64,000 bases of DNA from an uncultured Chloroflexia bacterium (GTDB lineage: Bacteria > Chloroflexota > Limnocylindria > Limnocylindrales > CSP1-4): positions 27,475 through 91,474 of the forward strand of contig CAWDCJ010000009.1 of assembly GCA_963800795.1 (NCBI GenBank), in the 5' to 3' direction. The notes beneath the pieces are model-generated. The model searched no databases, was not told the origin of the DNA, and worked only from the letters and a program-made list of their open reading frames with translations. Below are positions 16,997 to 61,727 of the stretch, in pieces. Numbering within the stretch: the first letter of the stretch is position 1; every line of letters begins with the position of its first letter. The translations under genes were made by a program, and so were the position numbers.

Positions 16997-17114
16997 GTCG
17001 CCGCTCCGCCGGATGCAGCGCAAGGCGGCGCGGAGCACGTGAGCGAGCGCACTCGAGGTGCGTGAGCGAGCGAGCGGACGTGCCAACGCAGCGAGGCGTC
17101 GGCGCAGTGGCGAC
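16997..17114 (+). repeat. Structured intergenic repeat, copy 2 (REP/MITE-like)
   Basis: Flanked by gtcgccgct...gccggatgc and gcgtcggc...agtggcgac imperfect inverted repeats; core 17020-17070 matches the reverse complement of 2000-2051. Confidence 0.8.
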
Positions 17115-17141
17115 GAACAAGGAGCCCGAGAGGGCGCCCTC

Positions 17142-17897: not shown

Positions 17898-18325
17898 CCG
17901 CGAAGACGTACACGCTCCGGGAGGCGGAGATCGAGCGACGCTGGTACGTCGTCGACGCGACGGACGAGACGCTCGGCCGGCTCGCGTCGCGGATCGCCCG
18001 CGTCCTCGTGGGCAAGCACAAGCCGACCTACACGCCCAACCTGGACGGCGGCGATCACGTGATCGTGCTCAACGCCGGCAAGGTCGCCGTCAGCCGCGAC
18101 AAGCTGGACGCCAAGATCTACGCCCGCCACAGCGGCTACCCCCAGGGATACAAGGAGGAGACCCTCGGGCACCTGCTCGAGCGTCGCCCCGAGGAGGCCG
18201 TGCGTCGGGCCGTGAAGGGGATGGTTCCCCACACCCGGCTCGGCGCCCAGCAACTCCGCAAGCTCAAGATCTACGCCGGCCCGGATCACCCGCACCAGGC
18301 GCAGCGGCCGGAACCGCTGGGCTGA
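17894..18325 (+). CDS. rplM: 50S ribosomal protein L13
   Basis: ATG 17894; [21 protein letters not shown]. Confidence 0.98.
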
Positions 18326-44195: not shown

Positions 44196-45752
44196 TCAGT
44201 GCGCGGCGGCTCGTGCTGCGGGCATCGGTGACTGGCATCGTCGGCTCCGCCTCGGCCCGGGGCGGGTACTCGCCGCGCAGCCAGGCGTCGATGGAGGCGG
44301 CGGCGCGCTTGCCGTCGCCCATCGCCAGGATCACCGTGGCCGCCCCGCGCACGATGTCGCCGCCGGCGAAGACGCCCGGTAGCGACGACATGCCGTGCTC
44401 GTCGGTGACGATGTAGCCCTCCTTGTTGAGCGCCAGGTCCGGCTCCGACGCGGTGAGGAGCGGGTTCGAGCGCGTGCCGATCGCCACCACGACCATCTCG
44501 CAGTTCGATCACGAACTCGGAGCCCGCGATCGGGGTGGGTCGACGCCGGCCGGACGCGTCAGGCTCGCCCAGCTCCATGCGGATGCACCGGATCCCGGTG
44601 ACCCAGCGGTTCTCGTCGCCGAGCACCTCGAGCGGCGCCACCTGCAGCTCGAACCGGATCCCTTCCTGCTCGGCGTGGTGGACCTCCTCCGCGCGGGCAG
44701 GGAGCTCGGCCATGCCGCGCCGGTAGACGATCGTCGCCTCGTCGGCTCCCAGGCGCTTCGCGGTCCGGACCGAGTCCATCGCGACGTTGCCGCCACCGAC
44801 GACCACGACCCGGTGGCCCCGCAGGACCGGCGTGTCGGACTCGGGGTTCCAGGCGCCCATCAGGTTGACGCGCGTGAGGTACTCGTTGGCCGAGTAGACG
44901 CCCTTGAGGTTCTCACCCGGCACGTTCATGAAGACCGGCAGGCCGGCACCCACGGCCAGGAAGACGGAGTCGAACCGATCGCGCAGCTCGCGCAGGGTGT
45001 AGGTGCGGCCGATGATCGCGTTCGTCTCGATCTTGACGCCGGTCGCCACGAGGCGGTCCACCTCCTGCTGGACGATGTCCTTCGGAAGCCGGAACTCGGG
45101 GATCCCGTAGATCAGCACGCCGCCGGCGGCGTGAAATGCTTCGAACACGGTGACGTCGTGGCCCTGCTTGACCAGCTCGCCCGCGGCGGTCAGCCCGGCC
45201 GGGCCCGACCCGACGATGGCGACCGACCGCCCCGAGGTGGTCGGCGCGTCCGGCTTCGACCGGTCCGGGTGGGCCATCGCCCAGTCGGCCACGAACCGTT
45301 CCAGGGACCCGATCGCGACCGAGGCGCCCTTCTTGGCCCGGACGCAGCGGCCCTCGCACTGGATCTCCTGCGGGCAGACCCGTCCCGTGACGCAGGGGAG
45401 GGCGTTGTCGTCGAGAAGCGACGCGGCGGCACCGTCCATGTCGCCCGACCCGGAGCCGCTCGATGAACAGCGGGATGTTGACCCGGACCGGGCAACCCTC
45501 GATGCACACCGGGTTCTTGCACTGGAGGCAGCGCTCCGCCTCGAGCATCGCCAGCTGCTGCGAGTAGCCCAGGTTCACCTCGCGGAAGTTGGCCGCCCGC
45601 AGGAGCGCGTCCTGCTCGGGCATGTGCGTTCGATCGATCGTCATCCGCTCCTTCGGCAGGAGCGGATGATCGAAGGCCGGGGTGAATTCCGGGTCGCCGT
45701 GGGACGCGCCCGGGTCCCCCGTGGGGGAATCCGGGATTGGCTGGTCGGTCAT
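44196..45752 (-). CDS. nfnB: NfnB/SudA (GltD-like) large subunit of electron-bifurcating transhydrogenase (about three frameshifts)
   Basis: EAERCLQCKNPVCIEGCPV, GRVCPQEIQCE, GSGPAGL, YGIPEFRLPK, GGGNVAMD, FAGGDIVRGAATVILAMG. Confidence 0.92.
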
Positions 45753-46690
45753 CAGGCCGGCTTCCCCGTGGCCGCGGCCGCGACCGCCTCCCGTCCCTCT
45801 GCCGCGGTCGCCAGCCCCGGGATCAGGCACGGCCCGCCGGCCTCCTGGGCGGTCCCCGCATCCCTGGCCGCGTTGCGGCGGTGGGCGATCTCCAGGGCGC
45901 GCGCCTCGAAGTCCCGGTAGGTGCCCAGTCGATCGGCGAGCTCGCGGAAGTCGACCTGGTGCGCGTCGAACTCGGGCCCGTCCACGCATGCGTAGACGGT
46001 CTTGCCGCCGACCGCGACCCGACAGCCACCGCACATTCCGGTGCCGTCGAGCATGATCGCGTTCAGCGAGGCGAAGGTCGGAACGCCATACGGCCGGGTC
46101 ACCTCGGCGACCGCGCGCATCATGGGGACCGGGCCGACGGCGTACACGGCGTCGACGCCGCCCGCCTCGATGACGTCGCGAAGCGCGTCGGTCACGAAAC
46201 CGGGACGCCCGTAGCTCCCGTCGTCCGTGCAGGTGATGACCTCGCCGGCGCGCCGCAGCTCGTCCTCGAAGATGACCCACTCCCGGGAGCGGCCGCCGAT
46301 CACGCTGATCACCTCGACCCCGCGGGCGGCCAGCCCCAGCGCGATCGGGTGGACCACGGCCGTGCCGACGCCACCGCCGACGCAGACCGCCCGACCGTGG
46401 TCGAGCAGCTCCGTGGCCCTGCCGAGCGGGCCCGCGACATCCGCGATCGCGTCGCCGGGCTGCAGGGCGACCAGGTCCTCGGTGCTCTTGCCGACGGCCT
46501 GGATCACGAGCGTGATCGTTCCGCGCTCCGGGTCGGCGTCCGCGATCGTGAGCGGGATCCGCTCCGCGCCGGGGGCGCGATGGACGATCACGAACTGGCC
46601 TGGCTGGCGGATCTCGGCGATGCGACGCGCCTCGATGACGAGGCGCGTCACGTTCGGTGAAAGCTGGGTCCTGTCGAGGACGGCGTGCAT
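45752..46690 (-). CDS. nfnA: NfnA/SudB small subunit (FAD, [2Fe-2S])
   Basis: PGQFVI, ERIPLTI, GPLG, GGGVG, DDGSYG, DGTGMCGGCRV..ACVDGPEF; stop overlaps the nfnB start. Confidence 0.94.
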   Translation of the reverse strand: MHAVLDRTQLSPNVTRLVIEARRIAEIRQPGQFVIVHRAPGAERIPLTIADADPERGTITLVIQAVGKSTEDLVALQPGDAIADVAGPLGRATELLDHGRAVCVGGGVGTAVVHPIALGLAARGVEVISVIGGRSREWVIFEDELRRAGEVITCTDDGSYGRPGFVTDALRDVIEAGGVDAVYAVGPVPMMRAVAEVTRPYGVPTFASLNAIMLDGTGMCGGCRVAVGGKTVYACVDGPEFDAHQVDFRELADRLGTYRDFEARALEIAHRRNAARDAGTAQEAGGPCLIPGLATAAEGREAVAAAATGKPA

Positions 46691-46740
46691 GGGAACTCCC
46701 GCTCGGGTGCGCGTGTTTCCGTCATCATGCGCGCATTACG

Positions 46741-46774
46741 AAAATCGATCCATGCGCAACAGTGCATGGATCGA
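46741..46774 (-). terminator. Hairpin plus T-tract (probable intrinsic terminator after fdx; alternatively an operator)
   Basis: Perfect 11-bp arms tcgatccatgc/gcatggatcga (46745-46774), followed on the minus strand by TTTT. Confidence 0.6.
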
Positions 46775-46863
46775 GGGCCGAATGTCACACCGCCGCGGGC
46801 CCGCGCTTCCGAACGACCGGGCGGAGCCCGGTGCGCCAGCTCCCCGCGCGGGCGCCTCGGGGG

Positions 46864-47067
46864 TCAGATAGTCAGGGCCGGGCTGGCGGCGATGATCGCC
46901 TCGGTCGGGCAGACCTCGACCCCGATGCAGCCCCCGACCGCGACACAGTCGCCGCAGATCTCGGGATCCACGACGTAGACGTCGCCCGCCTTCGAGATGG
47001 CCCCGCAAGGGCACTCAGGCTCGCAGTTCCCGCACCCGATGCAGTCGTCCGTGATCGTGCTGGCCAT
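46864..47067 (-). CDS. 2[4Fe-4S] ferredoxin
   Basis: CIGCGNCEPECP and CGDCVAVGGCIGVEVCP; AGGAAGG SD before ATG 47067. Confidence 0.9.
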   Translation of the reverse strand: MASTITDDCIGCGNCEPECPCGAISKAGDVYVVDPEICGDCVAVGGCIGVEVCPTEAIIAASPALTI

Positions 47068-47115
47068 GTCCACCTTCCTGCAGGTTGATGCGGCGGGGCC
47101 GGAGCCGGGCTCCGC

Positions 47116-47553
47116 CTAGACGGCGGCCGCGGCCGTGCCGCCGGTCGCATCGCCCTGGACGGGGGGACTGCCGTCCGGGAGTTGCTGGTGCCACTCCTGG
47201 TGCCCAGGGCGCGGGTCGCCCGGGGCCGCCCCGGTATGCAGGTGGACGTGAGGCGCATCCACCGACATCCGGAGGCTGTCCTTGTTGCAGAGATCGATGC
47301 AGACGCCGCAGGCGATGCAGCGAAGCTGCTCGATGGCGAAGGAGCGCTCCTCGCGCGAGACGGTCAAGGCAACGGTCGGGCAGCGCCGCGCGCACAGCCC
47401 GCAGAAGACGCAGGTTGCCAGGTCGAACTCGAGCGTCCCGCGGGTGCCCGCGAAGTGCGGGCGCGTCTCGCTCGGGTAGCGGCGCGTCGCCGGGCGGGAG
47501 AGGAGGTTGCGCAGCGATCGGCCCACCATCGGCAGGTTGAAGGGGTTCGCCAT
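47116..47553 (-). CDS. echF: Ech hydrogenase 2[4Fe-4S] subunit (NuoI-like)
   Basis: PATRRYP, CVFCGLCARRCP, CIACGVCIDLC. Confidence 0.9.
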   Translation of the reverse strand: MANPFNLPMVGRSLRNLLSRPATRRYPSETRPHFAGTRGTLEFDLATCVFCGLCARRCPTVALTVSREERSFAIEQLRCIACGVCIDLCNKDSLRMSVDAPHVHLHTGAAPGDPRPGHQEWHQQLPDGSPPVQGDATGGTAAAAV

Positions 47554-47554
47554 C

Positions 47555-48640
47555 TCAGCGCTCCGTGCAGCTGATGCAGGGATCGATGGTCATGATGATG
47601 TTCGGGACGTCGGCCAGGTCGCAGCCCTTGACCAGCTTGATCATGGCCGGGATGTTGGCGAAGGTCGGCGTCCGCGCCCGGAAGCGCTCGAGGTACTTCG
47701 TGCCGTTCGCCTTGATGTAGTAGATGACCTCGCCGCGGGGCTGCTCGAGGCGCTCGAAGACCTCGCCGGTCGGGAGGCCGCGCACCTTGACCTCGATCGG
47801 TGCGCCCTCCGCCTTCGGCATCCGCGAGACGGCCTGGGAGATCAGGTCGATCGACTGCAGGATCTCCCGCACCCGCACCACCACCCGGGCGAGGCAGTCA
47901 CCGGCCGTCTCGATCACGGGCGTGAAGTCCAGCCGGTCGTAGAGATGCGTGCCGCTGGTCCGGGTGTCGAGCGGGATGCCGGAAGCGCGCGCCATCGGTC
48001 CGACCGCGTCCACCGCGTGCGCGTCCTCGCGGCTCAGGAGTCCCACGCCGGACAGGCGATGACGGATGGACGGATCGGTCTCGAAGATGCGCGCCGTCTG
48101 GGCGAAGCTCGCCCCCAGCTCCTGCAGCTTCTCGACGATCGCGGCGAGCTCGCTGTCCGAGATGTCGCGGCGCACGCCGCCGATCCGATTGACCGAGAAG
48201 ATGATCCGGCCGCCGGTCGTCTTCTCGAAGATGTCGAGCACCTCCTCGCGCGTCCGCCAGCAGTGCATGAAGAGGTTCTCGAAGCCGAAGGCGTCGGCGC
48301 CAAGGCCCAGCCAGAGGAGGTGGCTGTGGATCCGCGACATCTCGGCCCAGATCAGGCGCAGCCAGCTGGCGCGCTCCGGCACCTCGACGCCCATGATCTT
48401 CTCCATCGCCACGGCATAGCCCATGCCGTGCATGAAGCTGCAGATCCCGCAGATGCGCTCCACCACGTAGCCGAACTCGGTGTACTCGACGCGCTCGACG
48501 AGCGCCTCCAGGCCCCGGTGGATGTAGCCGATGGTGGGGATCGCATCCACCACCTTCTCGTCCTCCAGGACCAGGTCGAGCACGATCGGCTCGGGCAGGA
48601 CCGGGTGCTGAGGCCCCATGGGGACGACGGTGCGCTTCAT
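47555..48640 (-). CDS. echE: Ech [NiFe]-hydrogenase large subunit (group 4)
   Basis: GPQHPVLPEP, GYIHRG, L1 RICGIC, L2 DPCISCTER with no C-terminal extension. Confidence 0.95.
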   Translation of the reverse strand: MKRTVVPMGPQHPVLPEPIVLDLVLEDEKVVDAIPTIGYIHRGLEALVERVEYTEFGYVVERICGICSFMHGMGYAVAMEKIMGVEVPERASWLRLIWAEMSRIHSHLLWLGLGADAFGFENLFMHCWRTREEVLDIFEKTTGGRIIFSVNRIGGVRRDISDSELAAIVEKLQELGASFAQTARIFETDPSIRHRLSGVGLLSREDAHAVDAVGPMARASGIPLDTRTSGTHLYDRLDFTPVIETAGDCLARVVVRVREILQSIDLISQAVSRMPKAEGAPIEVKVRGLPTGEVFERLEQPRGEVIYYIKANGTKYLERFRARTPTFANIPAMIKLVKGCDLADVPNIIMTIDPCISCTER

Positions 48641-49050
48641 GCCTTCTTCGCCCCGACTTCGTGCTTCAGGGGTGCGTCGCCTCTTCCGAGGGCGTCGAGG
48701 CGGGCCCGGATCGCGCTCGGTGCGAAGGGCACGATGGTCGAAGTCTTGTAGAGCTGGCCCCTGAGATCGAGCGCCATCCCGGTCACGTTGACCCCGAACA
48801 GCTCCCGCATCTCGTTCTCGTACAGGAATGCCGCGCCGAAGGACCCCGAGATGCTGGGGACCTCCTCGCCGGGCAGGACCTGCTCGCGCAGATGCTCGAA
48901 GGCGCCGGCGCGCGCGAACGACCAGCTGATGTCCACCGCGCCGTGCTCCATGCCCTCGGCGGGCAGGATGCTCGTGGCGTTGATGATCGCGAGCCGCCAG
49001 CCGTCCCGCTGGTACTGGCCGACCCGGGCGAGGAACGTCTCCTTCTCCAT
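48637..49050 (-). CDS. echD: Ech subunit D (NuoC-like)
   Basis: VPSISGSFGAAFLYENEMRELFGV. Confidence 0.88.
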   Translation of the reverse strand: MEKETFLARVGQYQRDGWRLAIINATSILPAEGMEHGAVDISWSFARAGAFEHLREQVLPGEEVPSISGSFGAAFLYENEMRELFGVNVTGMALDLRGQLYKTSTIVPFAPSAIRARLDALGRGDAPLKHEVGAKKA

Positions 49051-49475
49051 CAGGCGCTCCGCTTCCGCTTCTGCTCGAGCGCCGCGATGCCGGAGACCAC
49101 GCCGTCGATGATGCTCTCGGGACGGGCCGCGCAGCCGGGGACGTAGACGTCCACGGGGATCACGTGGTCGATGCCGCCCTGGATGTTGTAGGCCCGCGCG
49201 AAGATGCCGCCCGAGCAGGCGCAGGCCCCCACCGCGACGACCACCTTGGGGTCGGGCATCTGCCGGTACAGGTTCTGGATGATCTCGATGTTCCGCTCGT
49301 TGACGCTGCCGGTGACGAGCAGGATGTCCGCGTGCTTCGGGTTGCCCGTGTTCACGACGCCGAAGCGTTCGACGTCGTAGAGCGGCGTCAGGCAGGCCAG
49401 CACCTCGATGTCGCAGCCGTTGCAGCTGGATCCGTCGTAGTGGAGGATCCAGGGGGAGCGCTTGAAGAGGGACAT
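49050..49475 (-). CDS. echC: Ech small subunit (NuoB-like)
   Basis: SSCNGCDIE, GNPKHAD, VGACACSGG, VPGCAARPE. Confidence 0.93.
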   Translation of the reverse strand: MSLFKRSPWILHYDGSSCNGCDIEVLACLTPLYDVERFGVVNTGNPKHADILLVTGSVNERNIEIIQNLYRQMPDPKVVVAVGACACSGGIFARAYNIQGGIDHVIPVDVYVPGCAARPESIIDGVVSGIAALEQKRKRSA

Positions 49476-49480
49476 CCGCA

Positions 49481-50337
49481 TCACCTGGCCAGGAGGAAGA
49501 GGGCGAGGACGTTGCCGCCGGTGAGCACCAGCGTGACCGCCCAGGTCGAGCGCAGGACGAGCTGCCACTTCGCCCGCGAGGTGGAGTTGTCGACCAGGAC
49601 CTCCAGGCCGTAGGCGATCACGAAGGCGAGCAGCCCGAGCGGCACGCTCCAGTTGAAGAAGAGCACGACGAACGCGCAAAGGAGCGCCGACTCGTACCAG
49701 TGGGCCACCTCCACGTAGGCCAGCAGGCGCCCCGACATGTCCGAGGTCAGGCCGTTGACCAGCTCCTGATGGGGGTGGTGGGAGGTGGAGATGTCGAACG
49801 GTGACTTGCGCAGCTTGATCGTGGCGACGAAGAGGAATGCCAGGAGCACGCCCGGCAGGGCCGGGGCGACCAGCACGGGCGAGGCGAGCACCCCCGCGTA
49901 GGTGCTCGCGCCGGTCGCCTTGCAGATGGCGGCCAGCATGAGGATGAAGAACGGCTCGGAGGCGAGCAGGACCACCAGCTCGCGCTCCGCCCCGGCGAAG
50001 CTGTACGGCGAGTCGACCGAGCCGGCCGCAAGGACCAGGCAGAGGGCCGCGAGGGCGAACACGAACGCGATGAAGATCAGGTCGGTGCCCCCGAGGGCCA
50101 GCGCCCCGGCCGCGGCCATGAAGCCGACGTGGCCCAGGAGCAGCGGCTCGACGACCGGGTTGATCCGGCCGCGGCCTCCTTCTCGAAAAGCTTCCCCACG
50201 TCGTAGAACGGCTGGAGCAGCGGCGGCCCGACGCGGCCCTGCATCCGGGCGCTGGCGATGCGGTCCACGCCGGCCAGGAGGCCCCCGAAGAACGGGGCGG
50301 CGACGACGAACAGGAGGCCGTAGGAGAGCGGGCTCAT
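49481..50337 (-). CDS. echB: Ech membrane subunit B (NuoH-like; frameshift near 50170)
   Basis: GVDRIASARMQGRVGPPLLQPFYDVGKL; PFDIS.SHH.HQELV. Confidence 0.92.
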
Positions 50338-52266
50338 CGCGGCACCGCGATCCCGACCAGGATCATCGCGGCGAGGATGGCTCCGCACGCGAGCGTCCCT
50401 GCCCGGAAGACGAGCGCGCCGTCGACCACGCCCTCGAGGTAGTAGTTGCGCAGCGTGACGGTCCGTGTCCCGCCCAGCGCGGCGCCCATCAGGTGGCCGG
50501 CGTTCGCACTGCGTCCGCTCGTGTAGAAGTCCGCGAGGTCGTAGCTCGATCGGCTCGAGGCCCAGAGCGCCAGCGCCGGCAGGAAGAGCACGGCCACCAG
50601 CATCACGACCACCATGGCCGGGTTGAGGGCCAGGAAGACGCGCGGCGTCGCCGAGAAGGCCGCCAGCGCGTACGGCCCGACGACGTGGTCGGAGATCCAT
50701 CCCAGGCCGGCGGTGATCCCGATGCACGCCGACCGCGAGGACGATCTCGGCGAACCACTCGTAGCGGGTGACGCGGTCCTCGACCGAGCGCTCGTACGGC
50801 TCGATGCTGCGCATCGAGAGGATCTTGATGAGCAGCTTGCCCCAGTAGAAGATCGTCAGCGAGCTGCCGAAGGCCATGATGATCAGGAATATCGCGCCGG
50901 CGAAGCCGGGCACCTCCAGGAAGGCCCGGATCGCGGTCCACTTCGCCACCACGATCCCGAACGGCGCGATGAACATGCCCGCGATCCCGGTCAGGGCCAG
51001 CGCGCTCACCCGCGGCATCCGGCTCACGAGCGTGTCGAAGTTCTCCATGTCCTTGGTGTAGAGCCGGTTCTCCAGCGTTCCCACCACCAGGAAGAGGAGG
51101 GCCTTGGCGACCGCGTGGAAGATCACGATCATCACGCCCACCCAGACCAGCTCCGGGGTGCCGATCCCGGCGCACCCGACGATCAGACCGAGGCTCCCGA
51201 TCGTGGAGTAGGCGAGCACCTTCTTCGTGTTCCGCTCGGTCACCGCGACCGTCGACGCGAACAGGAACGTCAGCAGGCCCACGAACGCGACCAGCGTGCC
51301 GACGGCCGACCCCGCCATCGCCGGCGAGAGACGCAGCAGCAGGAAGACGCCGGCCTTGACCATGGTGCTCGAATGGAGCAGGGCCGAGGTGGGGGAGGGT
51401 GCGTACATCGCGCCCAGCAGCCACGACGAGAAGGGCATCTGGGCGCTCTTCGTGATCCCGGCCAGCGAGAGCAGCGCGATCGCCGGGAGGAGCGCCGTCC
51501 CGGCCGGTCCGGCGGTCAGCCTGGCCAGGTCCATGCCGTCGGGCTGGCCGGCCAGCAGCAGCATGGCCACGGAGAAGCCCAGCCCGCCGAGCAGGTTCAT
51601 GTTGAGCGCGTCAAAGGCGTAGCCGATCGTCTCCTCGGTCCGCGTGTAGCCGATCAGGAGGAACGAGCAGATGGTCGTGATCTCCCAGAACACGCTCATC
51701 ATCGGGAGATCGTTGGAGACGACCAGCCCGAACATCGCCCCGAGGAACAGGAACAGGAGGAAGAAGAAGGAGGTGCGCCGGCCACGGATCATCGGGTTCG
51801 CACGCTGGTAGTCGCGCATGTACCCGAGCGCGTGGATGCAGATCAGCGGCCCCACGATCCCGATCACCAGGACCATCACCATGGTCAGCCGATCGAACCA
51901 GAAGAGCCGCGACGGGTCGGCGTCCGGCAGGTGGCCCCCCAGGTCCAGGTAGAGCGCGATCCCCAGCTGGGCAGCTGCCATGATCGGTGCGACCACGCGC
52001 CCGTTCTGCAGGCTGACCACCACGATGAAGACCGCGATGGCCGCCTCCGCCACCAGGACCAGGTGGCCGGGCGTGAAGCCGCCCGGCAGGCCGAAGAAGA
52101 CCGCGTCGCCGTTGCCGAAGGTGAAGACGGTCACCAGCGACGCAGTGGCCACCACGACGCAGGCGAGCACGACGATGGCATTCCGAAGGGTGGCCCGGGT
52201 GACGACGAGCAGCCCGCCGCTGACAACGATCGGGAAGGCGACCAGGAAGACCGTGAGTGCGCTCAT
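50334..52266 (-). CDS. echA: Ech antiporter-like membrane subunit A (NuoL-like; frameshift near 50740)
   Basis: FWEITTICSFLLIG, KSAQMPFSSWLLGAM.APSPTSALLHSSTMVKAG, KKVLAYST. Confidence 0.93.
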
Positions 52267-52293
52267 CTCAGTCGCGCCGTCTCCGGTCCGGCA

Positions 52294-52683
52294 TCAGTGC
52301 GCCGCCTCGAGGAGGTGGTCCACCTCGTAGACGAGGACGTCCGGGGAGACCGGCTTCTCCATGAAGCGCGCGACGGGCAGCCATCCGCCGTCCCGGTCCT
52401 GCGCGGCGAGCTCGCGGGCGGAGATGAACTCGTCCACCCGGCTGAGCATGATCAGCGACAACCCGGGGAAGTCGCGGGCGAGCTTTCGGGCAAGGTCGAA
52501 ACCTGCGGTCGTCCCGTCGAGCATCGCCTCGAGCACCACGAGGTCGGGCGTATCGCGCCGTGTGGCGGCGAGCCCGTCGGCCGTCGTCCTGGCCGTGGCC
52601 ACGGCATGGCCGTCCGCCTCCAGAGCGGCCCTGTTCCGCGCGACCAGGTCCGCGTCATCGTCCACCAGAAGGATGTGTGCCAT
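52294..52683 (-). CDS. Stand-alone receiver-domain protein (atypical)
   Basis: ILLVDDD, PDLVVLE, IMLS, FMEKPV. Confidence 0.88.
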   Translation of the reverse strand: MAHILLVDDDADLVARNRAALEADGHAVATARTTADGLAATRRDTPDLVVLEAMLDGTTAGFDLARKLARDFPGLSLIMLSRVDEFISARELAAQDRDGGWLPVARFMEKPVSPDVLVYEVDHLLEAAH

Positions 52684-52901
52684 ATCCCGTCCAGGCCCGG
52701 GGTCCGCCCGGAGCCATCAACTCCCGCGTCCACGGCCCACTCGGCCGCTTGGACTGTTGTGCTGTGCCAATCGACAGGGTAGCCAACCGACCGCGTTTGG
52801 CCGCTTGTAGATCGGCCCCTCGACACGTGCCGGACGGCCCGACATGGACGGGCCGAGTCGTCCCGGGGGCCCATCGGGCGCGGCGCGCTACGATGCGGGG
52901 C

Positions 52902-53246
52902 GTGCACGAGTTCTCGATCGCCGAGGCGCTGGTCGCCCAGGTGCAACGCCACGCGCCACCATCCGGGCGCGTGCGCGAGGTGGAGATCTGCGTCGGCGCG
53001 CTGCGGGGCCTGGAGCCCGACGCGCTCCGGATGTGCTGGGAGGCCGTGACCCACGGCACGTCGATCGACGGTGCGATCCTGCAGGTCGACCTCCGCCCGT
53101 GGACGATCACGTGCTCCAGCTGCGGGCGGACATGGACGAGCCCCGTCCCGTTCGTGGCCTGCGCGTGCGGCGATCCCGCCCCCCGCCCCACGGCTGGTGA
53201 CGAGCTGGACCTGGTCGCGCTCACCGTCGAAGCCGAGGAGGACTGA
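52902..53246 (+). CDS. hypA: Hydrogenase nickel incorporation protein HypA
   Basis: (V/M)HEFSIA, CSSC and CACG zinc motifs, GDEL; start GTG 52902 (alternative ATG 52893). Confidence 0.93.
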   Translation: MHEFSIAEALVAQVQRHAPPSGRVREVEICVGALRGLEPDALRMCWEAVTHGTSIDGAILQVDLRPWTITCSSCGRTWTSPVPFVACACGDPAPRPTAGDELDLVALTVEAEED

Positions 53247-53936
53247 ATGGCCGAAGCAGCCAGGACGACCCGGGTTCCGCTCGTCGAGCGGGTCCTGGAG
53301 GCGAACGATGAGGTCGCGGCCGCCAATCGCACCCAGCTGGAGCGGCGTGGCATCTTCTCGGTCGACCTGATCGGGGCGCCCGGCAGCGGCAAGACCGCGC
53401 TTCTCGAGGCGACCTTGCGGGCGCTGCGCGGACACCGGCGGCCGGCGGTCCTTGTCGGGGACTTGGCGACCCGCCGCGACGGCGACCGGCTGGCCCGCTG
53501 GTGCGACCAGGTGGTCCAGATCTCGACGGGCCAGGGATGCCACCTGGAGGCGAACCAGGTCCGGGACGCGCTCGCCGGGATCGACCTGGATGCCATCGAT
53601 CTTCTCTTCATCGAGAACGTGGGCAACCTGATCTGCCCGGTGGGCTTCGACCTGGGCCAGTCCGCCAAGGTCGGCCTGTTCAGCCTCACGGAGGGCGATG
53701 ACAAGGCGGCCAAGCACCCCTACCTGGTCGAGGCAGCCGACCTCATCCTGCTCAACAAGATCGACCTGCTGCCCTACCTGTCGTTCGACCGGTTGTTCTT
53801 CGAGGCGGACGTGCGGCTGCTGAACCCCGGCGTCCCAGTTCTCGGTGTCTCCGCGACGACCGGAGAGGGGTTGGACGCGTGGCTCGCCTGGCTGGAGCGA
53901 GCTCCGCTCCCCGGTGGTGCGACGGCGGGCGGCTGA
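53247..53936 (+). CDS. hypB: Hydrogenase nickel GTPase HypB
   Basis: GAPGSGKT, GCHL, IENVGNLICP, EGDDK..KHP, NKIDL. Confidence 0.96.
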   Translation: MAEAARTTRVPLVERVLEANDEVAAANRTQLERRGIFSVDLIGAPGSGKTALLEATLRALRGHRRPAVLVGDLATRRDGDRLARWCDQVVQISTGQGCHLEANQVRDALAGIDLDAIDLLFIENVGNLICPVGFDLGQSAKVGLFSLTEGDDKAAKHPYLVEAADLILLNKIDLLPYLSFDRLFFEADVRLLNPGVPVLGVSATTGEGLDAWLAWLERAPLPGGATAGG

Positions 53937-54293
53937 CGCTGGCGGGTCGGATTTCGCTCGAGGCGCGGTCGCCTCACCGGTGCCCGGAGGCAGGCCGGTC
54001 GAGAGCCGTCCGGGCCTGCATCCGGGGCCGACTGGCACTGGCCGCCCGGGTTGCCCGAGAGCGATCGTCGGTCGCAGTTAGACGTGGCGGATCGGGCCGT
54101 TCACCGTTGGAGCCAGGACACGCCGGCAGGGCGACGGTGCAGGCCGATCCGATCGGAGTGGCAGGTGCCCGGATCGATCTGACCGACGGCTCGCGTCACC
54201 CACGCTGCAGCAGGCCGTAGGCTCAGGGCGTCCCTCCTTCCCGGGTCGTGCTCTGCGCGCTGTGCGCGGAGTTCGCGTGGCGAGGAGGCGGAC

Positions 54294-54960
54294 ATGGCCC
54301 TCCCGATCGACGGCGGGCAACGGGCGTTCGGGGCGCCTGACGGCCCAATCCCGGCAGCCGGGCGGTCGTGACGTGAGTACGCACAGATTCGACCCGGTGC
54401 CGTCGGTCGACTCGACCACCGATTCCTCGCCGAGGTCTCCAGCGCGGCAGGGGGCCAGTCGCGCCTGCAGATGTGCATCCAGTGCGGCACCTGCGGCGGC
54501 TCGTGCCCCTCGGCCGCGGACATGGACCACACGCCGCGGATGCTGTTCGCGATGATCCGGGCCGGGATGCGGGACGCGGTGCTGGCCAGCAACACGCCCT
54601 GGATGTGCGTCTCGTGCCACTTCTGCGTCGTCCGCTGTCCGCAGGACGTTCACATCACCGATGTGATGTACGCGCTCAAGGGGATCGCGGCGAAGGCCGG
54701 CTCCAGCCCGGACTCCAAGGCGCCGGAGTTCTCGCGCGTCTTCGTCGAGAACATCGCGACCTACGGCCGGAGCTTCGAGGTCGGCCTCGTGGCCCGGCAC
54801 TACCTGCGCCACCAGTTCCGCGCGGCTTCCGAGCATGGCCCCCATGGGCATGGGGATGTTCGCTCGCGGTCGCATCGGGCTGATGCCCAAGCGGATCCGG
54901 GGTGTCGAGGGGCTGCGCGCGATTCTCGATCGTGCCGAGGCGCTGGAGGCAGCCCAATGA
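54294..54960 (+). CDS. hdrC: Heterodisulfide reductase subunit C-like (frameshifted; start ATG 54294 or GTG 54373)
   Basis: CIQCGTCGGSCP, WMCVSCHFCVVRCP; GAGGAGG SD before ATG 54294. Confidence 0.88.
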
Positions 54961-56045
54961 ACACGTTCCTGTATTACCCGGGATGTTCGATGGAGGGCAC
55001 CGCGCGGGCCTACCAGGCATCGCTCGACGTGGTGTGCAACGTCCTCGGCGTGCGCCTGCAGGAGATCGACGACTGGAACTGCTGCGGGGCGACAGAGTAC
55101 GCGGGGATCAGCCTGTTCCGGTCGCATGCGCTCATCGGGCGCAACCTCGCCCTGGCGGAGGCGCAGTCCGGCTCGATCGGCCGGCTCCGCGGGAGCGGCG
55201 ACCGGCGCCGTCCAGCCCGTCAAAGCGGCCGGTGAAGCGAGTGCGCACCGCGTGGAGACGGTCGTCGCCCCCTGCAGCGCCTGCTACCTCAACCTCGCCA
55301 AGACCGACGCCTACCTGCGCGACAACTCCGCGCTCGCCCGAGGCGTGAACGAGGCCCTCGGGGCGCGGGCCTCCACTACACCCCCGGGGCCGTGCGGGTC
55401 CGCCACCTCCTCGACGTCCTGGTCGACGATGTCGGCCTGGACGCGATTGCGGGCCGCGTATCGCGACCGCTCAGCGGCCTGCGTGTCGCGCCGTACCTCG
55501 GTTGCATGCTGACGCGCCCGGACCTCGATGAGCGCTGGCCCGTCCGCGAGCACCCCCTCGTGTTCGACCGGCTGCTCGAGGCGCTCGGCGCGGAGGTGAT
55601 CGACTTCCCGCTCAAGACCGACTGCTGCGGCGGTCACATGACCCAGATCAGCCCAGGGACCGGGTTCGAGCTCATCCGGCGTCTGGTCCACGAGGCGACA
55701 GCCCGGCACGCGGACATCATGGCCACCGTCTGCCCGATGTGCCAGATGAACGTCGACGCGTACCAGGGCGAGATGAACCGGTACTTCCGGACCCACTACA
55801 CGATGCCGATCCTGTTCTTCACGCAGCTCATGGGCCTCAGCTTCGGCGCGACCGCGAGCGAGGTCTCGATCGGGTCGGAGCTCGTCGATGCGGGACCGGC
55901 GCTTGCCCGGATCGGGATCCAGGTTCCGCAGGCCGAAGTCGATGCGGCTGCTGCCGAGGCGGCCGAGGTCGCCCGCAGGGCCCGAAGCCGGCGCTCCAAG
56001 GCGTTGCCGATGCCGCGAATGCCGGGCAAGGAGATCCGACAATGA
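54957..56045 (+). CDS. hdrB: Heterodisulfide reductase subunit B-like (frameshifts near 55200 and 55375)
   Basis: YYPGCS, WNCCGA, PCSACY, YLGCML, DCCGGH, CPMCQMN (two CCG domains). Confidence 0.92.
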
Positions 56046-58065
56046 GCCAGGAGGAGCGGATCGGGGTCTACATCTGCCACTGCGGGACGAACATCGCCGG
56101 CGTCGTGGACGTCGAGGCGGTCCGCGACTTCGCGGGAGACGCGCTCGCCGGACGCGGTGTGGTCGTCGCGCGGGACTCGAAGTTCATGTGCTCGAGCCTC
56201 GGGCAGGAGCAGATCGAGAAGGACATCGCCGAGCAGGGCCTGACCGGTGTCGTCGTGGGCGCCTGCTCGCCGCATATGCACGAGGCGACGTTCCGCGGGG
56301 CCTGCGCCCGCGCCGGGCTCAACCCGTATCTGTGCGAGCTGGTCTCGCTCCGCGAGCACGTGTCATGGGTGCACACCGACCGCGCCATGGCGACGGCGAA
56401 GGCAAAGGCCATCGTCACGAGCGGCGTGGAGCGGGTGCGCCAGTCGGTGCCGCTGGAACCGATCCGGGTTCCCATCAATGCCTCGACGCTCGTGGTGGGC
56501 GGCGGCATCACCGGCATCCAGGCCGCCCTGGAGCTGGCCGACGCCGGGCATCGCGTGTATCTGGTGGAGCGCCAGGCGTCGATCGGCGGCCACATGGCCC
56601 AGTTCGACAAGACCTTCCCGACGCTCGACTGCGCCGCCTGCATCCTCACCCCGCGCATGGTCACGGCCGGCAACCACCCGAACATCACGCTGATGACCTG
56701 GAGCGAGGTCGTGAACGTCTCGGGTTACGTCGGGAGCTTCTCGGTCACGGTCCGCCAGAAGGCGCGCTACGTGGACACCAGCCTGTGCACCGGCTGCGGC
56801 ATCTGCGAGGAGAAATGCCCTGTCCGGATCGTCGACGAATCCTTCGAGGCCGGGATCGGCTACCGCAAGGCGATCTCGGTGCCCTTCCCGCAGGCCGTCC
56901 CCAAGTACCCGGTCCTCGACCGAGATAACTGCACCTTCTTCGAGCGCGGGACGTGCCGCGCGTGCGAGAAGCTGTGCCCGACCAATGCGATCGATTTCAA
57001 CCAGCAGGACGAGCTCGTCACGTTCGACGTCGGCAACATCGTGGTCGCGACCGGCTACGAGCTGTTCGACCCGCGCCGGGTCGAGCAGTACGGCTACGGC
57101 CGCCTGGCCAACGTGTTCACGAGCCTCGAGTTCGAGCGCCTGAGCAACGCCTCCGGGCCGACCGAGGGCCGCGTGGTCCTGCGCGACGGGGTGACCGCGC
57201 CGAAGACGGTCGGCGTCATCCACTGCGTCGGCAGCCGCGACCGCAACTACAACTCGTACTGCTCGGCCATCTGCTGCATGCAGAGCCTGAAGTTCGCGCA
57301 CCTCGTGAAGGAGCGGACCGGGGCGACCGTCTACGAGTTCTACATCGACATCCGGACGCCCGGAAGGCGTACGACGAGTTCTACCAGCGGGTCCTGGAGG
57401 AGGGCACGATCTTCGTCCGGGGTCGCGTGGCCGAGGTGAGCGACTCGCTGCGGCCGGACGAGGCGGACGAGGCCGGCCGGCTCATCGTCCAGGTCGAGGA
57501 TACGTTGGCCGGGCGCCAGCGCCGGATCCCGGTCGACATGGTGGTGCTCTCGTGCGGCCTGGAGCCCGCGCACGACGCGCGCGACGTCGCCCGACTGATG
57601 GGGATCACCTGCAGCTCCGACGGCTGGATCACCGAGCGGCACCCGAAGCTCGATCCGATCGCCACCATGACCGAGGGCGTGTTCGCGGCTGGCTGCGCGA
57701 CCGGCCCCAAGGACATCCCCTCATCCGTTTCCCAGGGGGCGGCCGCAGCCGCCCGGGTGCTGACGCGCATCCAGGCTGGCGAGATGCTGCTCGAGCCGGT
57801 CCGCGCCAGCGTCGATGAGGCGCGCTGCTCCGGCTGCCGCATCTGCAACGCCATCTGTCCGTTCAACGCCATCCGGTTCCACGAGGAGACAGGGTTGTCG
57901 GAGGTGATCACGGCGCTCTGCCAGGGGTGTGGCACCTGCGTCGCCGCCTGCCCGGCCGGGGCGATGCACGGCACGGGCTTCAGTGACGCCCAGGTGCTGG
58001 CCCAGATCCGCGGGCTGCTCGCCAGCCCGGCCGTGGAGCCGCAGCGAGAGGCGGTGCTGGCATGA
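56042..58065 (+). CDS. hdrA: Heterodisulfide reductase subunit A (frameshift near 57362)
   Basis: GVYICHCGTNIA, GGGITG, DKTFPTLDCAAC, CTGCGICEEKCP, CSAICCM, CSGCRICNAICP, CQGCGTCVAACP. Confidence 0.95.
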
Positions 58066-58618
58066 GCCACGTTGCAGCCGAGCGTCTCGACGGGGCCTCC
58101 TTCGAGCCGGTGATCATCGGCTTCACCTGCAACTGGTGCAGCTACCGGGCGGCCGACCTGGCCGGGACCGCGCGCATGAAGTACCCGCCCAACATCAGCC
58201 TCGTCCGGCTGATGTGCTCGGGGCGGCTCGATCCGGCGTTCGTGCTGGAGGCGTTCGCGCGCGGCGCGGACGGCGTGCTGGTGACCGGTTGCTGGCCGGG
58301 CGACTGCCACTACCTGGAGCAGAACTACTACGCCCTGCGACGCTTCCAGCTGCTCAAACGGACCATGGCCGGGCTGGGCCTGGAGGTGCAGCGCCTCAGG
58401 CTCGTGTGGGCCAGCGCCGCCGAAGGTGCGCGGCTGGCCAGCGAGTTCAGCTCGTTCGTGGAAGAGGTCAGGGAGCTCGGACCACTGCACTGGGGCGGCG
58501 CTGGCCCCGTTCCGGCCGGAATTCGCGCCCGCGGTGCCCGAGGAGATCGCGACAGCGCGTCGAGGCGGCGATCGCCGCGACGATGCCGGCCGCGGTGACC
58601 GACGAGGTGATGGCATGA
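58062..58618 (+). CDS. mvhD: MvhD [2Fe-2S] subunit (track frame stops at 58598; likely frameshift)
   Basis: FTCNWCSY, RLMCSGRLDP, GCWPGDCHY..QNY, WASAAEG. Confidence 0.94.
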
Positions 58619-59691
58619 CTGGCGACGCGCGCCCCCGCTTCGCGATGTACTGGGGGGCCGCCTGCGGCGGCTGTGACATCGCCGTGCTCAACCTCAACGA
58701 GAAGCTCCTGGACGTGGCGGCCCGCTTCGAGATCGCGTTCTGGCCGGCCGTGGTCGACGTGAAGTACCACGACCTCGAGGCGATGCCGGACAAGTCGATC
58801 CTGCTGACCCTGTTCAACGGCGGGATCCGCAACTCCGAGAACGAGGAGATCGCCCGACTGCTGCGCCGTAAGAGCCAGCTCCTCGTGGCCTTCGGTGCCT
58901 GTGCGACCGAGGGTGGCATCCCTGGGCTGGCCAACCTGTCCAGTCCCGCCGAGATCTACGCCGCCGTGTACGACGACGGGCTGTCCACGGTGAATCCCGA
59001 CGGCGTGCGCCCGGTGACAAGCATGCCCGTCCCCGAGGGTGAGCTCCACCTGCCGACGTTCCAGCACCTCGTCCGGACCCTGGACCAGGTGGTCCCCGTC
59101 GACTACTACGTGCCCGGCTGCCCGCCCGAGACCGCCCGGATCGCCGAGGTCATGGACGTCGTGATGGCGGTCCTCGACGGGAAGGCGGAGCTGCCGCCGC
59201 CGGGATCGATTCTCGGTGCGGGGACCTCCACGGTGTGCGACGAGTGCAGCCGCGAGCGGCACGAGAAGCGGCTGCCGGCGTTCGTGCGCCTCCAGTCGGT
59301 CGCCCGTCTCGACCCGAACCTGTGTCTCCTCGAGCAGGGCATTCCCTGCAACGGGCCGGCGACGCGTTCCGGCTGTGGCGCGCTCTGCCCGGCGGCCGGG
59401 GCCCAGTGCATCGGCTGCTACGGATCGGCCGACGGCGCGGGCGACCAGGGCGCCCGCCTGCTGTCCGCGTTCGCCTCGATCGTGGAGGCGCGCGAGCCTT
59501 CGACATCGATCTTGCGCTGGCGGGCATCGCCGACCCGGTCGGCCAGTTCTATCGCTTCGGGCTGGCAGCCTCGCCGCTGCGCGGTGGGCGGCATGGCGTC
59601 GCCGCGCGCGACGACGGCATGGAGGACGGTCCGGTCGAGCCGGCGGAGTCGGACTGCCGGGCGCGAGCTCGTCGCCGGCGCGGCGAGGTAG
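58615..59691 (+). CDS. mvhG: Group 3c [NiFe]-hydrogenase small subunit (frameshifted tail)
   Basis: WGAACGGCD, FGACATEGG, PGCPP, VCDEC, CLLEQG..CNGPATRSGC.ALCP, CIGCYG. Confidence 0.92.
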   Translation: MTGDARPRFAMYWGAACGGCDIAVLNLNEKLLDVAARFEIAFWPAVVDVKYHDLEAMPDKSILLTLFNGGIRNSENEEIARLLRRKSQLLVAFGACATEGGIPGLANLSSPAEIYAAVYDDGLSTVNPDGVRPVTSMPVPEGELHLPTFQHLVRTLDQVVPVDYYVPGCPPETARIAEVMDVVMAVLDGKAELPPPGSILGAGTSTVCDECSRERHEKRLPAFVRLQSVARLDPNLCLLEQGIPCNGPATRSGCGALCPAAGAQCIGCYGSADGAGDQGARLLSAFASIVEAREPSTSILRWRASPTRSASSIASGWQPRRCAVGGMASPRATTAWRTVRSSRRSRTAGRELVAGAAR

Positions 59692-59698
59692 GAGAGCG

Positions 59699-61192
59699 AT
59701 GATGGAGCGAGTGACCGATCGACCCGATCACCCGGCTGGAGGGCCACGGCCGAATCGAGATCTTCCTCGACAGCGACGGCGAGGTCGCGAACGCCTACTT
59801 CCAGGTCCCCGAGATGCGCGGCTTCGAGCGCTTCTGCGTGGGCCGGCCGGTTGAGGAGATGCCGCTGCTCACCAGCCGGATCTGCGGGGTCTGTCCGGAG
59901 GCGCACCACATGGCGGCCGCCAAGGCCGCCGATGCCGTCTATCACGTCGATCCGCCCCGGGCCGCCAAGCTGCTCCGCGAGCTCCTGTACAGCGCGTTCT
60001 TCGTCGCCGACCATACGACCCACTTCTACGCGCTCGGTGGGCCGGACCTCGTCGTCGGGCCCGACGCGCCGGCCTCGGAGCGCAACCTGCTCGGCGTGCA
60101 TCCGGACGGTCGGCCTGGAGATCGGTGGGCAGGTCATCGAGGCCCGTCGGGCGGGTCACCGCGTCATCGAGCTCATCGGCGGCCGCAAGGTCCACCCCTG
60201 CACCGCCGTGCCCGGGCGGTCTCACCAAGGGCATCACGGAGGACGAGCGGGCCGAGATCGAGCGCCTGGGCCGCTGGGCCGTCGAGTTCGGCCAGGCGAG
60301 CCTGGCCCTGTTCGACCGGCTGGTCCTGGGCAACCCGGCCTACCTCGAGCTGATCCTGGGCGACGTGTATCGCGACGAGACCTATTACATGGGCATGGTC
60401 GACCCCGCCGGGAAGGTCAACTTCTACGACGGCCGGATCCGGGTCGTCGCTCCCGATGGCGAGCTTCACGGCGAATACGCGCCCGCCGAGTACCGGGACT
60501 GGATCGCCGAGCGTGTCGAGCCGTGGACCTACCTCAAGTTCCCGTACCTCCAGCAGGTCGGCTGGAAGGGATTCGTGGACGGCAAGGACTCGGGCATCTA
60601 CTGCGCGACGCCCCTGAGCCGGCTCAACGCCGCCGACGGGATGGCCACCCCGCTCGCCCAGGCCGAGTACGAGCGCTTCTACGCGACGCTGGCCCCGCGC
60701 GCCGCGGACGGCCGCAAGCGACTCGTCCACCAGCGGCTGGCCACGCACTGGGCGCGCCTGATCGAGCTGCTCTATGCGGCCGAACGCTGGGTCGAGCTGG
60801 CGACGCGACCCGGAGGTCGTCTCGGACAACGTCCGAACCGTGCCCACCGAGGCGCCGACGAAGGGCGTCGGGACCGTCGAGGCCCCGCGGGGGACGCTCA
60901 CCCACCACTACTGGACCGACGAGCGCGGAGTCCTCACCCGCGTGAACCTCGTCGTGGGGACGACGAACAACTACGCGCCGATCAGCCTGTCGGTCGCCAA
61001 GGCCGCCCGCAACCTGATCCACCACGGGAACGGTCGACCGATGGGTTGCTGAACCGGGTCGAGATGGCGTTCCGGTCCTATGACCCGTGCTTCGGTTGCG
61101 CGACGCATTCCCTGCCGGGCCAGATGCCGCTCGAGGTGGCGATCCGCGACGCTGACGGTCGCGTGCTCGACGTCCGCCGCCAGTTCTGCTGA
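59699..61192 (+). CDS. mvhA: Group 3c [NiFe]-hydrogenase large subunit (about five frameshifts)
   Basis: DPITRLEGH, RGFE, L1 RICGVCPEAH, EAPRGTLTHHY, L2 DPCFGCATH plus C-terminal extension. Confidence 0.93.
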
Positions 61193-61198
61193 TCGCCG

Positions 61199-61681
61199 AT
61201 GGTCGGGCCCACCCTGGTCATTGGCCTGGGCAACCCGATCCTGGGGGACGATGGGGTCGGCTGGCGCGTGGCCGACGAGGTCGAGCGCCGCCTGAGCGCG
61301 TGCCCGGCACCTGCGCCGGCGACCGTCGAACGCCTGGCGGTGGGCGGTCTCGCCCTCATGGAACGGCTCGTCGGGTGCGGGCGCGCCATCATCATCGACT
61401 CGTACCTGAGCGACGGCGAGCCTGGAACGGTCAGGTCGTTTTCGCTCGGGGAGCTTGCGGGCCGCCCGGTCGGATATCTCGACTCCGCCCACGATGCGTC
61501 GCTCGCGTCTGCCCTGGCGGCAGGCCGGGCCGTCGGAGCGCGCCTCCCGGATGACGTGGTCGTGGTCACGGTCGATACGGTGCCGCAGGACGTCTTCGAC
61601 GACACCCTCACGGCGCCCGTCCAGGCGGCGGTCGAGGCGGCCGCGAACGAGGTCATGGCGCTGATCGCCCGCGCGGATTGA
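61199..61681 (+). CDS. Hydrogenase maturation endopeptidase
   Basis: GLGNPILGDDGVG, IIDS, SAHD. Confidence 0.92.
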   Translation: MVGPTLVIGLGNPILGDDGVGWRVADEVERRLSACPAPAPATVERLAVGGLALMERLVGCGRAIIIDSYLSDGEPGTVRSFSLGELAGRPVGYLDSAHDASLASALAAGRAVGARLPDDVVVVTVDTVPQDVFDDTLTAPVQAAVEAAANEVMALIARAD

Positions 61682-61727
61682 CGATCGGGCGCGGGCGGCG
61701 GTCCCGCCGGCGCGTCCCAACCGCCGG

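Follow-up and report, generated by a model that had tools for sequence, protein, structure and literature searches.

An Ech-ferredoxin-Nfn operon joined to a mobile Hdr-Mvh cassette in a Limnocylindrales bacterium, a probable H2/ferredoxin redox-balancing set

Ech-type hydrogenases convert reduced ferredoxin and H2 into one another while translocating ions, NfnAB connects ferredoxin and NADH with NADPH, and Mvh-Hdr oxidises H2 while bifurcating its electrons to ferredoxin and a disulfide, all three systems being reversible according to the established biochemistry of their families. Genes for all of them are found together in the DNA analysed here, a 64,000-nt stretch (the window) from an uncultured bacterium of the Limnocylindrales (Chloroflexota), in which the locus under study spans positions 44,196-61,681. 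On the minus strand, a receiver-only response regulator (RR) gene, echABCDEF, a small ferredoxin gene and nfnAB form an operon that is divergent from plus-strand hypAB, which is followed by hdrCBA, mvhDGA and the gene of a HycI-type maturation protease. An initial annotation of the window had listed these genes in this back-to-back layout, and profile searches together with tblastn recovered every one of those it named, its list lacking only the RR gene at the head of the ech operon. It had also taken the whole for a single island, a picture that gave way to that of a conserved Ech-ferredoxin-Nfn/HypAB core plus a separate, mobile hdr-mvh cassette of 7.8 kb.

The closest described counterpart of the cassette is the MvhADG-HdrABC complex of Methanothermococcus thermolithotrophicus (PDB 5ODC), with which it shares all six subunits, an FlpD-type MvhD and two complete CCG motifs in HdrB. 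On the other hand, the host is here a bacterium with a heme-copper oxidase and with no McrA found in its genome, HdrB stays under the cut-off of the coenzyme B-coenzyme M (CoB-CoM) family and carries an insertion of ~30 aa, and there is no gene for an MvhB polyferredoxin. Cassettes of other Chloroflexota and of Dormibacterota (e.g. GCA_016223085.1) are identical in gene order and content, the present one differing in its attachment to an Ech-ferredoxin-Nfn/HypAB cluster and in belonging to the class Limnocylindria. As regards the membrane hydrogenase, the locus resembles Ech (EchABCDEF, group 4e) of Methanosarcina barkeri and anaerobic bacteria in its six genes in A-F order and in a large subunit without C-terminal extension, which ends in DPCISCTER, whereas it departs from the ~40 loci retrieved from outside Limnocylindria in that an RR gene precedes and a ferredoxin gene and nfnAB follow within the operon, a linkage not seen there. 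Like NfnAB of Thermotoga maritima and Clostridium kluyveri, the two subunits are encoded by adjacent genes and both exceed their NCBIfam cut-offs, in families that do not separate Nfn from close paralogues (Xfn-type); here, however, NfnB has an N-terminal extension of ~40 aa and the genes are co-operonic with Ech. Finally, H2-cycling models have reportedly been put forward for Desulfovibrio (Odom and Peck) and for the Ech/Frh/Vht-HdrDE system of Methanosarcina barkeri. In such models, recapture of H2 takes place on the outer side of the membrane and is tied to a quinone, methanophenazine or cytochrome chain. The present locus likewise pairs a ferredoxin-oxidising, ion-pumping hydrogenase with an H2-oxidising, disulfide-reducing enzyme, but H2 would be recaptured in the cytoplasm, by a bifurcating enzyme.

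Taken together, these genes probably constitute a functional H2/ferredoxin redox-balancing set of a Limnocylindrales bacterium that is itself probably facultatively anaerobic, and the set appears to be built of two units. The first would be an Ech-type, six-subunit group 4 membrane hydrogenase that moves ions in converting reduced ferredoxin to H2 and back; the 67-aa ferredoxin, because it is encoded in the same operon, is the likely carrier common to Ech and Nfn, and NfnAB would join that ferredoxin pool to NADH and NADPH. The second, carried by the cassette, is Mvh-Hdr, which by homology would pass the electrons of H2 to ferredoxin and to a disulfide other than CoM-S-S-CoB. Under anoxia, 2-oxoacid:ferredoxin oxidoreductases (OFOR) and Nfn would load ferredoxin, Ech would release surplus reductant as H2 and thereby conserve energy, Nfn would balance NAD(P)H, and Mvh-Hdr, where present, would recapture the cell's own or outside H2 into low-potential ferredoxin. 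The direction of flux, the coupling between the units and the substrate of Hdr are what we infer here. A facultative anaerobe that vents H2 is the most economical reading, since both OFOR and an oxidase are present and the relatives come from waterlogged soils.

With a G+C content of 70%, the window yields raw open reading frame (ORF) lists crowded with spurious frames, and the gene map was built from a frame plot of G+C at third codon positions (GC3), Pfam and NCBIfam scans, and tblastn with intact orthologues from a sister genome. By these means, homologues of NuoL, NuoH, NuoB, NuoC, NuoD and NuoI were recognised in the order echABCDEF, the order being read by tblastn with the intact orthologues. 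EchE retains, unlike NuoD, both NiFe-binding CxxC pairs (RICGICSFMH and DPCISCTER); it is unbroken, and 98.9% identical to EchE of the sister metagenome-assembled genome (MAG) G005. Its best PDB matches, membrane-bound hydrogenase (MBH) 6CFW_L (4d) and HycE 7Z0S_E (4a) of formate hydrogenlyase (FHL), belong to other subgroups, and it is 56-62% identical to EchE-like large subunits from Methanoregula, Syntrophus and Clostridia loci with the same six-gene set. Its nearest relatives outside the class are found in Anaeromyxobacteraceae, Bacillota, Syntrophus and Methanoregula at 56-69% identity, again with that set. A Coo-type (4c) assignment was considered and rejected, the gene order being ech-like from A to F and cooS/cooF not being adjacent. 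In every Limnocylindrales locus the RR gene precedes echA. It also occurs at ech in an Anaeromyxobacteraceae locus (L057, 51% identity) and an Elusimicrobiales locus (L075, 43%), and RR and ech may travel as one unit. The ferredoxin shows a CxxCxxCxxxCP motif and a second Cys cluster and is 79-94% conserved in the sister loci. NfnA is 98.4% identical to its G005 orthologue, and the intact NfnB of G005 scores 567 bits against TIGR01316 (cut-off 472).

Regarding the cassette, the window pieces of MvhA contain RICGVCPEAHH and SYDPCFGCATH, which match the motifs given for MvhA, ICGxCxxxH (L1) and YDPCxxCATH (L2) (PMC6085437). The intact MvhA of G005 finds MvhA of the methanogen complex (5ODC_F) as its best PDB match (1e-111), MvhD, MvhG, HdrA, HdrB and HdrC are all encoded with it, and HdrA matches methanogen HdrA end to end. 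HdrB has both CCG cysteine motifs complete, while its score against the CoB-CoM equivalog TIGR03288 is 149.5 bits (cut-off 345) and covers residues 101-318 only. Because of this score, and because no McrA occurs in the genome, HdrB is regarded as an Hdr-type disulfide reductase whose predicted substrate is other than CoM-S-S-CoB. It has thousands of homologues, among them hundreds of metagenomic proteins at 55-60% identity, and the neighbourhoods of these homologues (Wood-Ljungdahl genes, AceK, an ACT-domain protein) offered no shared partner gene that might serve as a clue to the substrate.

The division of the locus into two parts emerges from its relatives. Twenty reference proteins were searched by tblastn against 80 loci retrieved with EchE, and the core GlyRS / nfnB-nfnA-(ferredoxin)-echFEDCBA-RR / hypA-hypB is kept in ~35 species-level Limnocylindrales MAGs from fens, peat, permafrost and Danish soils. 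hdr-mvh adjoins this core in only four of their loci, L018 (G005), L020 (the sister genome G017), L041 and L046. In L019, L022, L027, L031 and L033, homology to the window ends at ~53,900-53,914 and returns at 61,723-61,757, with only ~90-110 nt in between; the cassette is absent from L025 too, where homology returns only at 62,662. Since homology in these cassette-less relatives stops after hypB and resumes past the protease gene, hdrCBA-mvhDGA-hycI is a clean 7.8-kb indel after hypB. The search for direct or inverted repeats at its borders gave a chance 9-mer only, with no sign of a transposon-type mechanism.

The position of the cassette is not always the same. It follows hypB in the window, G005 and G017. 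L041 and L046 instead have its seven genes on the strand of ech, flanked by echF and a protease gene; in L046 the protease gene is followed by nfnAB, and the L041 contig ends before echD on one side and past the protease gene on the other. In a tree of EchE+EchC+EchB, the two arrangements fall into well-separated, supported clades, and cassette-less L025 is sister to cassette-bearing L020. These placements indicate at least two independent events linking the cassette to Ech-Nfn, plus loss or non-gain. As nfnAB stands beside ech in none of the ~40 Ech loci retrieved from other phyla, the Ech-ferredoxin-Nfn operon itself is a lineage-specific arrangement. In L043 (7,523-7,987) and L049 (11,619-12,032), a HycI-type protease gene is found directly after echF without hdr or mvh, although EchE offers no C-terminal extension as a substrate; a cassette since lost may have left it behind.

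At a broader scale, 201 Limnocylindria genomes, evenly drawn from 43 genera, were surveyed. EchE homologues (E <= 1e-100) occur in 14 of them and in 5 genera, at an identity of at least 77% in 12 of the 14, and MvhA orthologues (at least 59% identity) in ~24. A group 3c large subunit is present in 10 of the 12 genomes with Ech at that identity versus 14 of the other 189, and 7 of these 10 genomes have the Ech and MvhA loci unlinked. Elsewhere in Chloroflexota the hdr-mvh cassette is common, and its gene order is repeated in the three contexts inspected in other Chloroflexota and Dormibacterota. In one of the Chloroflexota MAGs (L098; GCA_016223085.1, JACRPS010000003.1) Wood-Ljungdahl genes (CdhD, RACo, a methyltransferase, MTHFR and a CooC-like protein) immediately precede the cassette, and two cyclic nucleotide monophosphate (cNMP)-binding regulators follow it.

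The host genome comprises 2.65 Mb in 15 contigs, with a marker completeness of 72%. On the contig of the window, rpoB, rpoC, fusA, tuf and the S10-spc-alpha ribosomal operons lie upstream of the locus, which is flanked by recO and genes for a polyprenyl synthase, glycyl-tRNA synthetase (glyS, GlyRS) and a phosphoenolpyruvate (PEP)-utilising enzyme. The closest public loci are all from Limnocylindrales/Chloroflexota MAGs of independent projects (Stordalen fen, Chersky permafrost, SPRUCE peat, Danish soils), and the glyS-nfnB junction is found again in ~25 independent Limnocylindrales MAGs. This recurring junction, together with the rpoBC/ribosomal operon on the contig, means that the contig is neither chimeric nor misbinned. 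The genome encodes subunit I of a heme-copper oxidase (COX1), OFOR-alpha, formate-tetrahydrofolate ligase (Fhs) and HypD (split by a frame break), and the host is probably a facultative anaerobe of waterlogged soil. Three [NiFe] large subunits are present, those of Ech and Mvh and a third at C11:579-581 kb. The locus of the latter (G000:C11:575,900-584,200) encodes, besides the large subunit, a small subunit and a dedicated protease, and has a fused Fe-S/FAD-NAD subunit twice, with one copy continuing into epimerase-like sequence, probably via a frame error; judged by eye, it looks group-3b-like (sulfhydrogenase type).

For the Limnocylindria-containing lineage, few hydrogenases have been recorded, group 1l alone being mentioned, and group 3c with Hdr has been noted for Anaerolineae and Dehalococcoidia (bioRxiv 10.1101/2021.08.23.457424). 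The accessible portions of the literature on Limnocylindria (Ellin6529/CSP1-4) portray its members as freshwater heterotrophs and aerobic oxidisers of trace gases that possess few hydrogenases, literature retrieved for Ellin6529 and CSP1-4 with hydrogenase consists of aerobic trace-gas work only, and the titles, abstracts and passages available for Limnocylindrales contain nothing on this cluster. The initial annotation was correct in pointing to a lineage described mainly from oxic habitats and in proposing a non-methanogen as host, and the genome does encode an oxidase. None of the circumstances that it had named as fatal to its proposal, namely a decayed island, a chimeric or misbinned contig and a cluster already described for the lineage, holds: the searched literature yielded no paper on such a cluster, the shared junction and the ribosomal context speak for a sound contig, and the frame breaks are judged below to be assembly errors.

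About 15 frame breaks are spread through nfnB, echB, echA, hdrC, hdrB, hdrA, mvhG and mvhA within 17.5 kb, and tblastn with the intact G005 orthologues drops each of these genes onto two to four frames; the frameshifts already suspected from the letters are therefore real features of this assembly. They are not peculiar to the locus. A GC3-based detector places 714 frame junctions in the genome, at a density of ~2.7 per 10 kb on each of the contigs; the 30-kb bin of the locus has 13, within a genome-wide bin range of 1-27. Ten high-scoring junctions were drawn at random from other contigs, and most of them lie within single housekeeping genes: Fhs, OFOR-alpha and UvrA, once rejoined, are each covered across the junction by an unbroken match to one full-length NCBIfam model, and Dxs is crossed in one stretch by NF003933, its top model TIGR00204 (over cut-off) matching as two stretches. 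Thus uvrA, dxs, fhs, hypD and OFOR are split elsewhere in the genome by the same kind of break. On the contrary, all genes of the locus are in single frames in both sister genomes, G005 (CAWFBS010000008.1, ~588-607 kb, a Microflora Danica MAG) and G017. The window is 94.2% identical to G005 at the nucleotide level over 18.5 kb and ~98% identical at the amino-acid level, its proteins remaining 97-100% identical outside garbled stretches and right up to each break. The ratio of nonsynonymous to synonymous substitution rates (dN/dS) with G005 is 0.03-0.11 in every gene piece, broken genes included, a sign of purifying selection, and several breaks are compensating indel pairs 170-240 nt apart. 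Considering that (i) breaks occur genome-wide, (ii) the sister genes are intact, (iii) dN/dS is this low, and (iv) indels come in compensating pairs, the frame breaks are judged to be errors of a long-read-type assembly and not decay, and users of this assembly should accordingly read them as errors and not as gene loss. Several single-base insertions relative to G005 (50,164; 50,723; 55,178; 44,505) lie in or next to GAT/GATC contexts; these events are few, and might be methylation-linked base-calling errors. Paired ±1 gaps in divergent stretches (e.g. glyS), obtained with low-penalty blastn, were dismissed as alignment noise and are not frameshifts.

The contrary proposal, that the organism itself carries these frameshifts and its genes are pseudogenes, draws on the sheer number of breaks in so short a stretch and on the nearly clean ribosomal/rpo region nearby. 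It is very improbable, given the equivalent breaks in genes such as uvrA and dxs at similar density on all contigs, the low dN/dS of the broken genes themselves, the compensating pairs and the identity to intact orthologues up to each break; decay does not look like fifteen independent inactivating indels in proteins that are otherwise almost unchanged. If the genes are functional, they could also run mainly in the direction of H2 uptake, external H2 being consumed in H2-rich anoxic peat, with Mvh-Hdr reducing ferredoxin with H2, Ech using the ion gradient to reduce more, and Nfn turning ferredoxin and NADH into NADPH for biosynthesis. In methanogens without cytochromes, Eha/Ehb together with Mvh-Hdr play this role. 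The reversibility of all three enzymes would permit it, relatives come, by their record titles, from H2-producing settings (fens, peat and permafrost), and in another Chloroflexota MAG the cassette sits directly 3' of Wood-Ljungdahl genes, which consume ferredoxin. Nevertheless, neither CdhC/AcsB nor any other obvious large sink for reduced ferredoxin was found in the genome, in which OFOR is present, and uptake as the main mode is possible but rather doubtful.

An intracellular H2 cycle, as the initial annotation had envisaged among its options, would have Ech evolve H2 from ferredoxin while pumping ions and Mvh-Hdr reoxidise it, half of the electrons going back to ferredoxin and half to the disulfide, the net reaction being a ferredoxin:disulfide oxidoreduction coupled to ion translocation. 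The joining of the cassette to the Ech-Nfn cluster on two occasions, at different sites and in distant clades, would fit such a cycle, as would the presence of both systems in the same genomes even when unlinked. However, it requires a disulfide that is continuously re-oxidised by a terminal acceptor, and none is identifiable; 14 of the 24 genomes with a group 3c large subunit in the class sample are without Ech, the cassette occurs in many unrelated contexts, and a shared anaerobic niche could equally give the co-occurrence, all of which makes the cycle improbable. Uptake and the closed cycle are both rated below H2 venting because there is neither an acetyl-CoA synthase-type sink for ferredoxin nor an identifiable disulfide that could be regenerated. 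A further speculation, and a long shot, is that the cassette was recruited twice to RR-echABCDEF-fd-nfnAB since both form one H2-cycling circuit in facultative aerobes, its terminal oxidant being a regenerable disulfide that is neither CoM-S-S-CoB nor DsrC. The two units might, conversely, serve separate purposes, the cassette lying beside hypAB and ech only since hydrogenase loci share maturation genes and regulation. The cassette is indeed self-contained, with its own protease and leader, it is unlinked to Ech in most genomes with both, and L025 does without it at this site although sister to L020; yet two independent insertions into the same cluster and the strong co-occurrence at genome level exceed what is expected of unrelated modules, so that mere co-location is conceivable though on balance unlikely. 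The reading preferred here, a redox-balancing set of two units, has several points against it. The evidence that the frame breaks are artefacts is comparative throughout, and the rpoBC/ribosomal stretch (window 1-17,900; G000:C9:16,000-27,474) is nearly break-free, with possibly one break near the 3' end of rpoB and one in rplO, better consensus in conserved, lower-GC DNA being one possible cause. The co-occurrence of Ech and MvhA (Fisher's exact p = 5e-9) counts genomes without correction for phylogeny, and the positives fall in three genera. No candidate disulfide carrier was found in the genome, DsrC being absent and HdrB below its CoB-CoM cut-off, and the searches of the host genome that returned no McrA, DsrC or CdhC/AcsB are provisional at its completeness of 72%.

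Table 1. Features of the Ech-ferredoxin-Nfn/HypAB core and of the hdr-mvh cassette (positions in the window).
Feature	Position	Strand	Matches and comparison with G005	Frame state
nfnB (NfnB/GltD-like Fe-S flavoprotein)	44203..45752	-	Pfam Pyr_redox_2, Fer4_20; 97-98% identity to G005 NfnB by tblastn	three frames; breaks at about 44,235-44,249, 44,505 and 45,446
nfnA (NfnA/SudB-like FAD/NAD-binding subunit)	45752..46714	-	NF004862 362 bits, cut-off 220	intact
small 2[4Fe-4S]-type ferredoxin, 67 aa	46864..47067	-	Pfam Fer4 5e-7	
echF (NuoI-like 2[4Fe-4S] subunit)	47116..47553	-	Pfam Fer4_7, Fer4 dicluster families; NCBIfam NuoI/HycF-type	
echE ([NiFe] large subunit, group 4)	47555..48640	-	Complex1_49kDa 2.8e-59; NiFeSe_Hases (N-terminal)	intact
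echD (NuoC-like)	48637..49050	-	Pfam Complex1_30kDa	18-nt in-frame insertion relative to G005
echC (NuoB-like small subunit)	49050..49481	-	Pfam Oxidored_q6 3.8e-33; 99% identical to G005	
echB (NuoH-like membrane subunit)	49481..50337	-	Pfam NADHdh	two frames by tblastn; break at about 50,164-50,174
echA (NuoL/MrpA-like antiporter subunit)	50334..52266	-	Pfam Proton_antipo_M	two frames by tblastn; break at 50,723
RR, receiver-only, first gene of ech operon	52294..52683	-	Pfam Response_reg 2.9e-12	
hypA (nickel metallochaperone)	52893..53246	+	Pfam HypA 6e-22; TIGR00100	
hypB (nickel-inserting GTPase)	53247..53936	+	Pfam cobW/HypB/UreG 9.8e-21	
hdrCBA-mvhDGA-hycI cassette, 7.8 kb	53937..61722	+	includes ~470-nt non-coding leader	
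hdrC	54411..54960	+	Pfam Fer4_17; TIGR03290	break at 54,821
hdrB, two CCG domains	54957..56045	+	Pfam CCG; alignment to G005 garbled between the two indels	compensating frameshift pair, 55,178 and 55,362
hdrA	56042..58065	+	97-99% identity by tblastn; PDB HdrA 1e-203	two frames; break at 57,364, a single-base deletion
mvhD	58062..58598	+	Pfam FlpD 6.9e-49 (165 bits); NF045873 VhuD	
mvhG ([NiFe] small subunit)	58615..59691	+	Pfam Oxidored_q6 2e-22	C-terminal stretch ~59,500-59,670 garbled by compensating indel pair
mvhA (group 3c [NiFe] large subunit)	59700..61192	+		three frames by tblastn; changes at about 60,100, 60,200, 60,806 and 61,040
HycI-type maturation endopeptidase	61199..61681	+	Pfam HycI 6e-8, 33 bits, cut-off 23	

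Some further features were observed at the borders of the locus and of the cassette. A 14-nt inverted repeat (window 53,983-54,026; 93% complementary, 16-nt loop) begins 47 nt past the hypB stop, at the start of the leader, and may be a terminator or a regulatory hairpin. At the other end, a 98-aa ORF (61,728-62,024, minus strand) abuts the cassette and shows only a weak match to the C-terminal part of NAD_binding_1; an oxidoreductase gene broken by a frame error may end here. The search for Rex operators found no site with up to 3 mismatches, and an Rfam scan of the whole window gave no matches. Upstream of nfnB, GlyRS (42,709-44,139) is 84% identical to that of G005, compared with ~98% for the adjacent genes of the locus, and 95-98% identical to GlyRS of L019, L020, L021 and L025, a pattern suggestive of recombination with its breakpoint where the locus begins.

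The three enzyme systems all belong to textbook families, and the hdr-mvh cassette is widespread; what is new is the host lineage, the lineage-specific Ech-ferredoxin-Nfn operon and the twice-repeated attachment of the mobile Hdr-Mvh cassette to it. A subset of Limnocylindria from fens, peat and permafrost thus carries a complete anaerobic ferredoxin/H2 toolkit beside an oxygen reductase, which bears on the identity of the makers and consumers of H2 in thawing and in waterlogged soils. The repeated joining of Hdr-Mvh with Ech-Nfn, for its part, offers a genetically defined place in which to ask what bacterial Hdr-Mvh complexes reduce.

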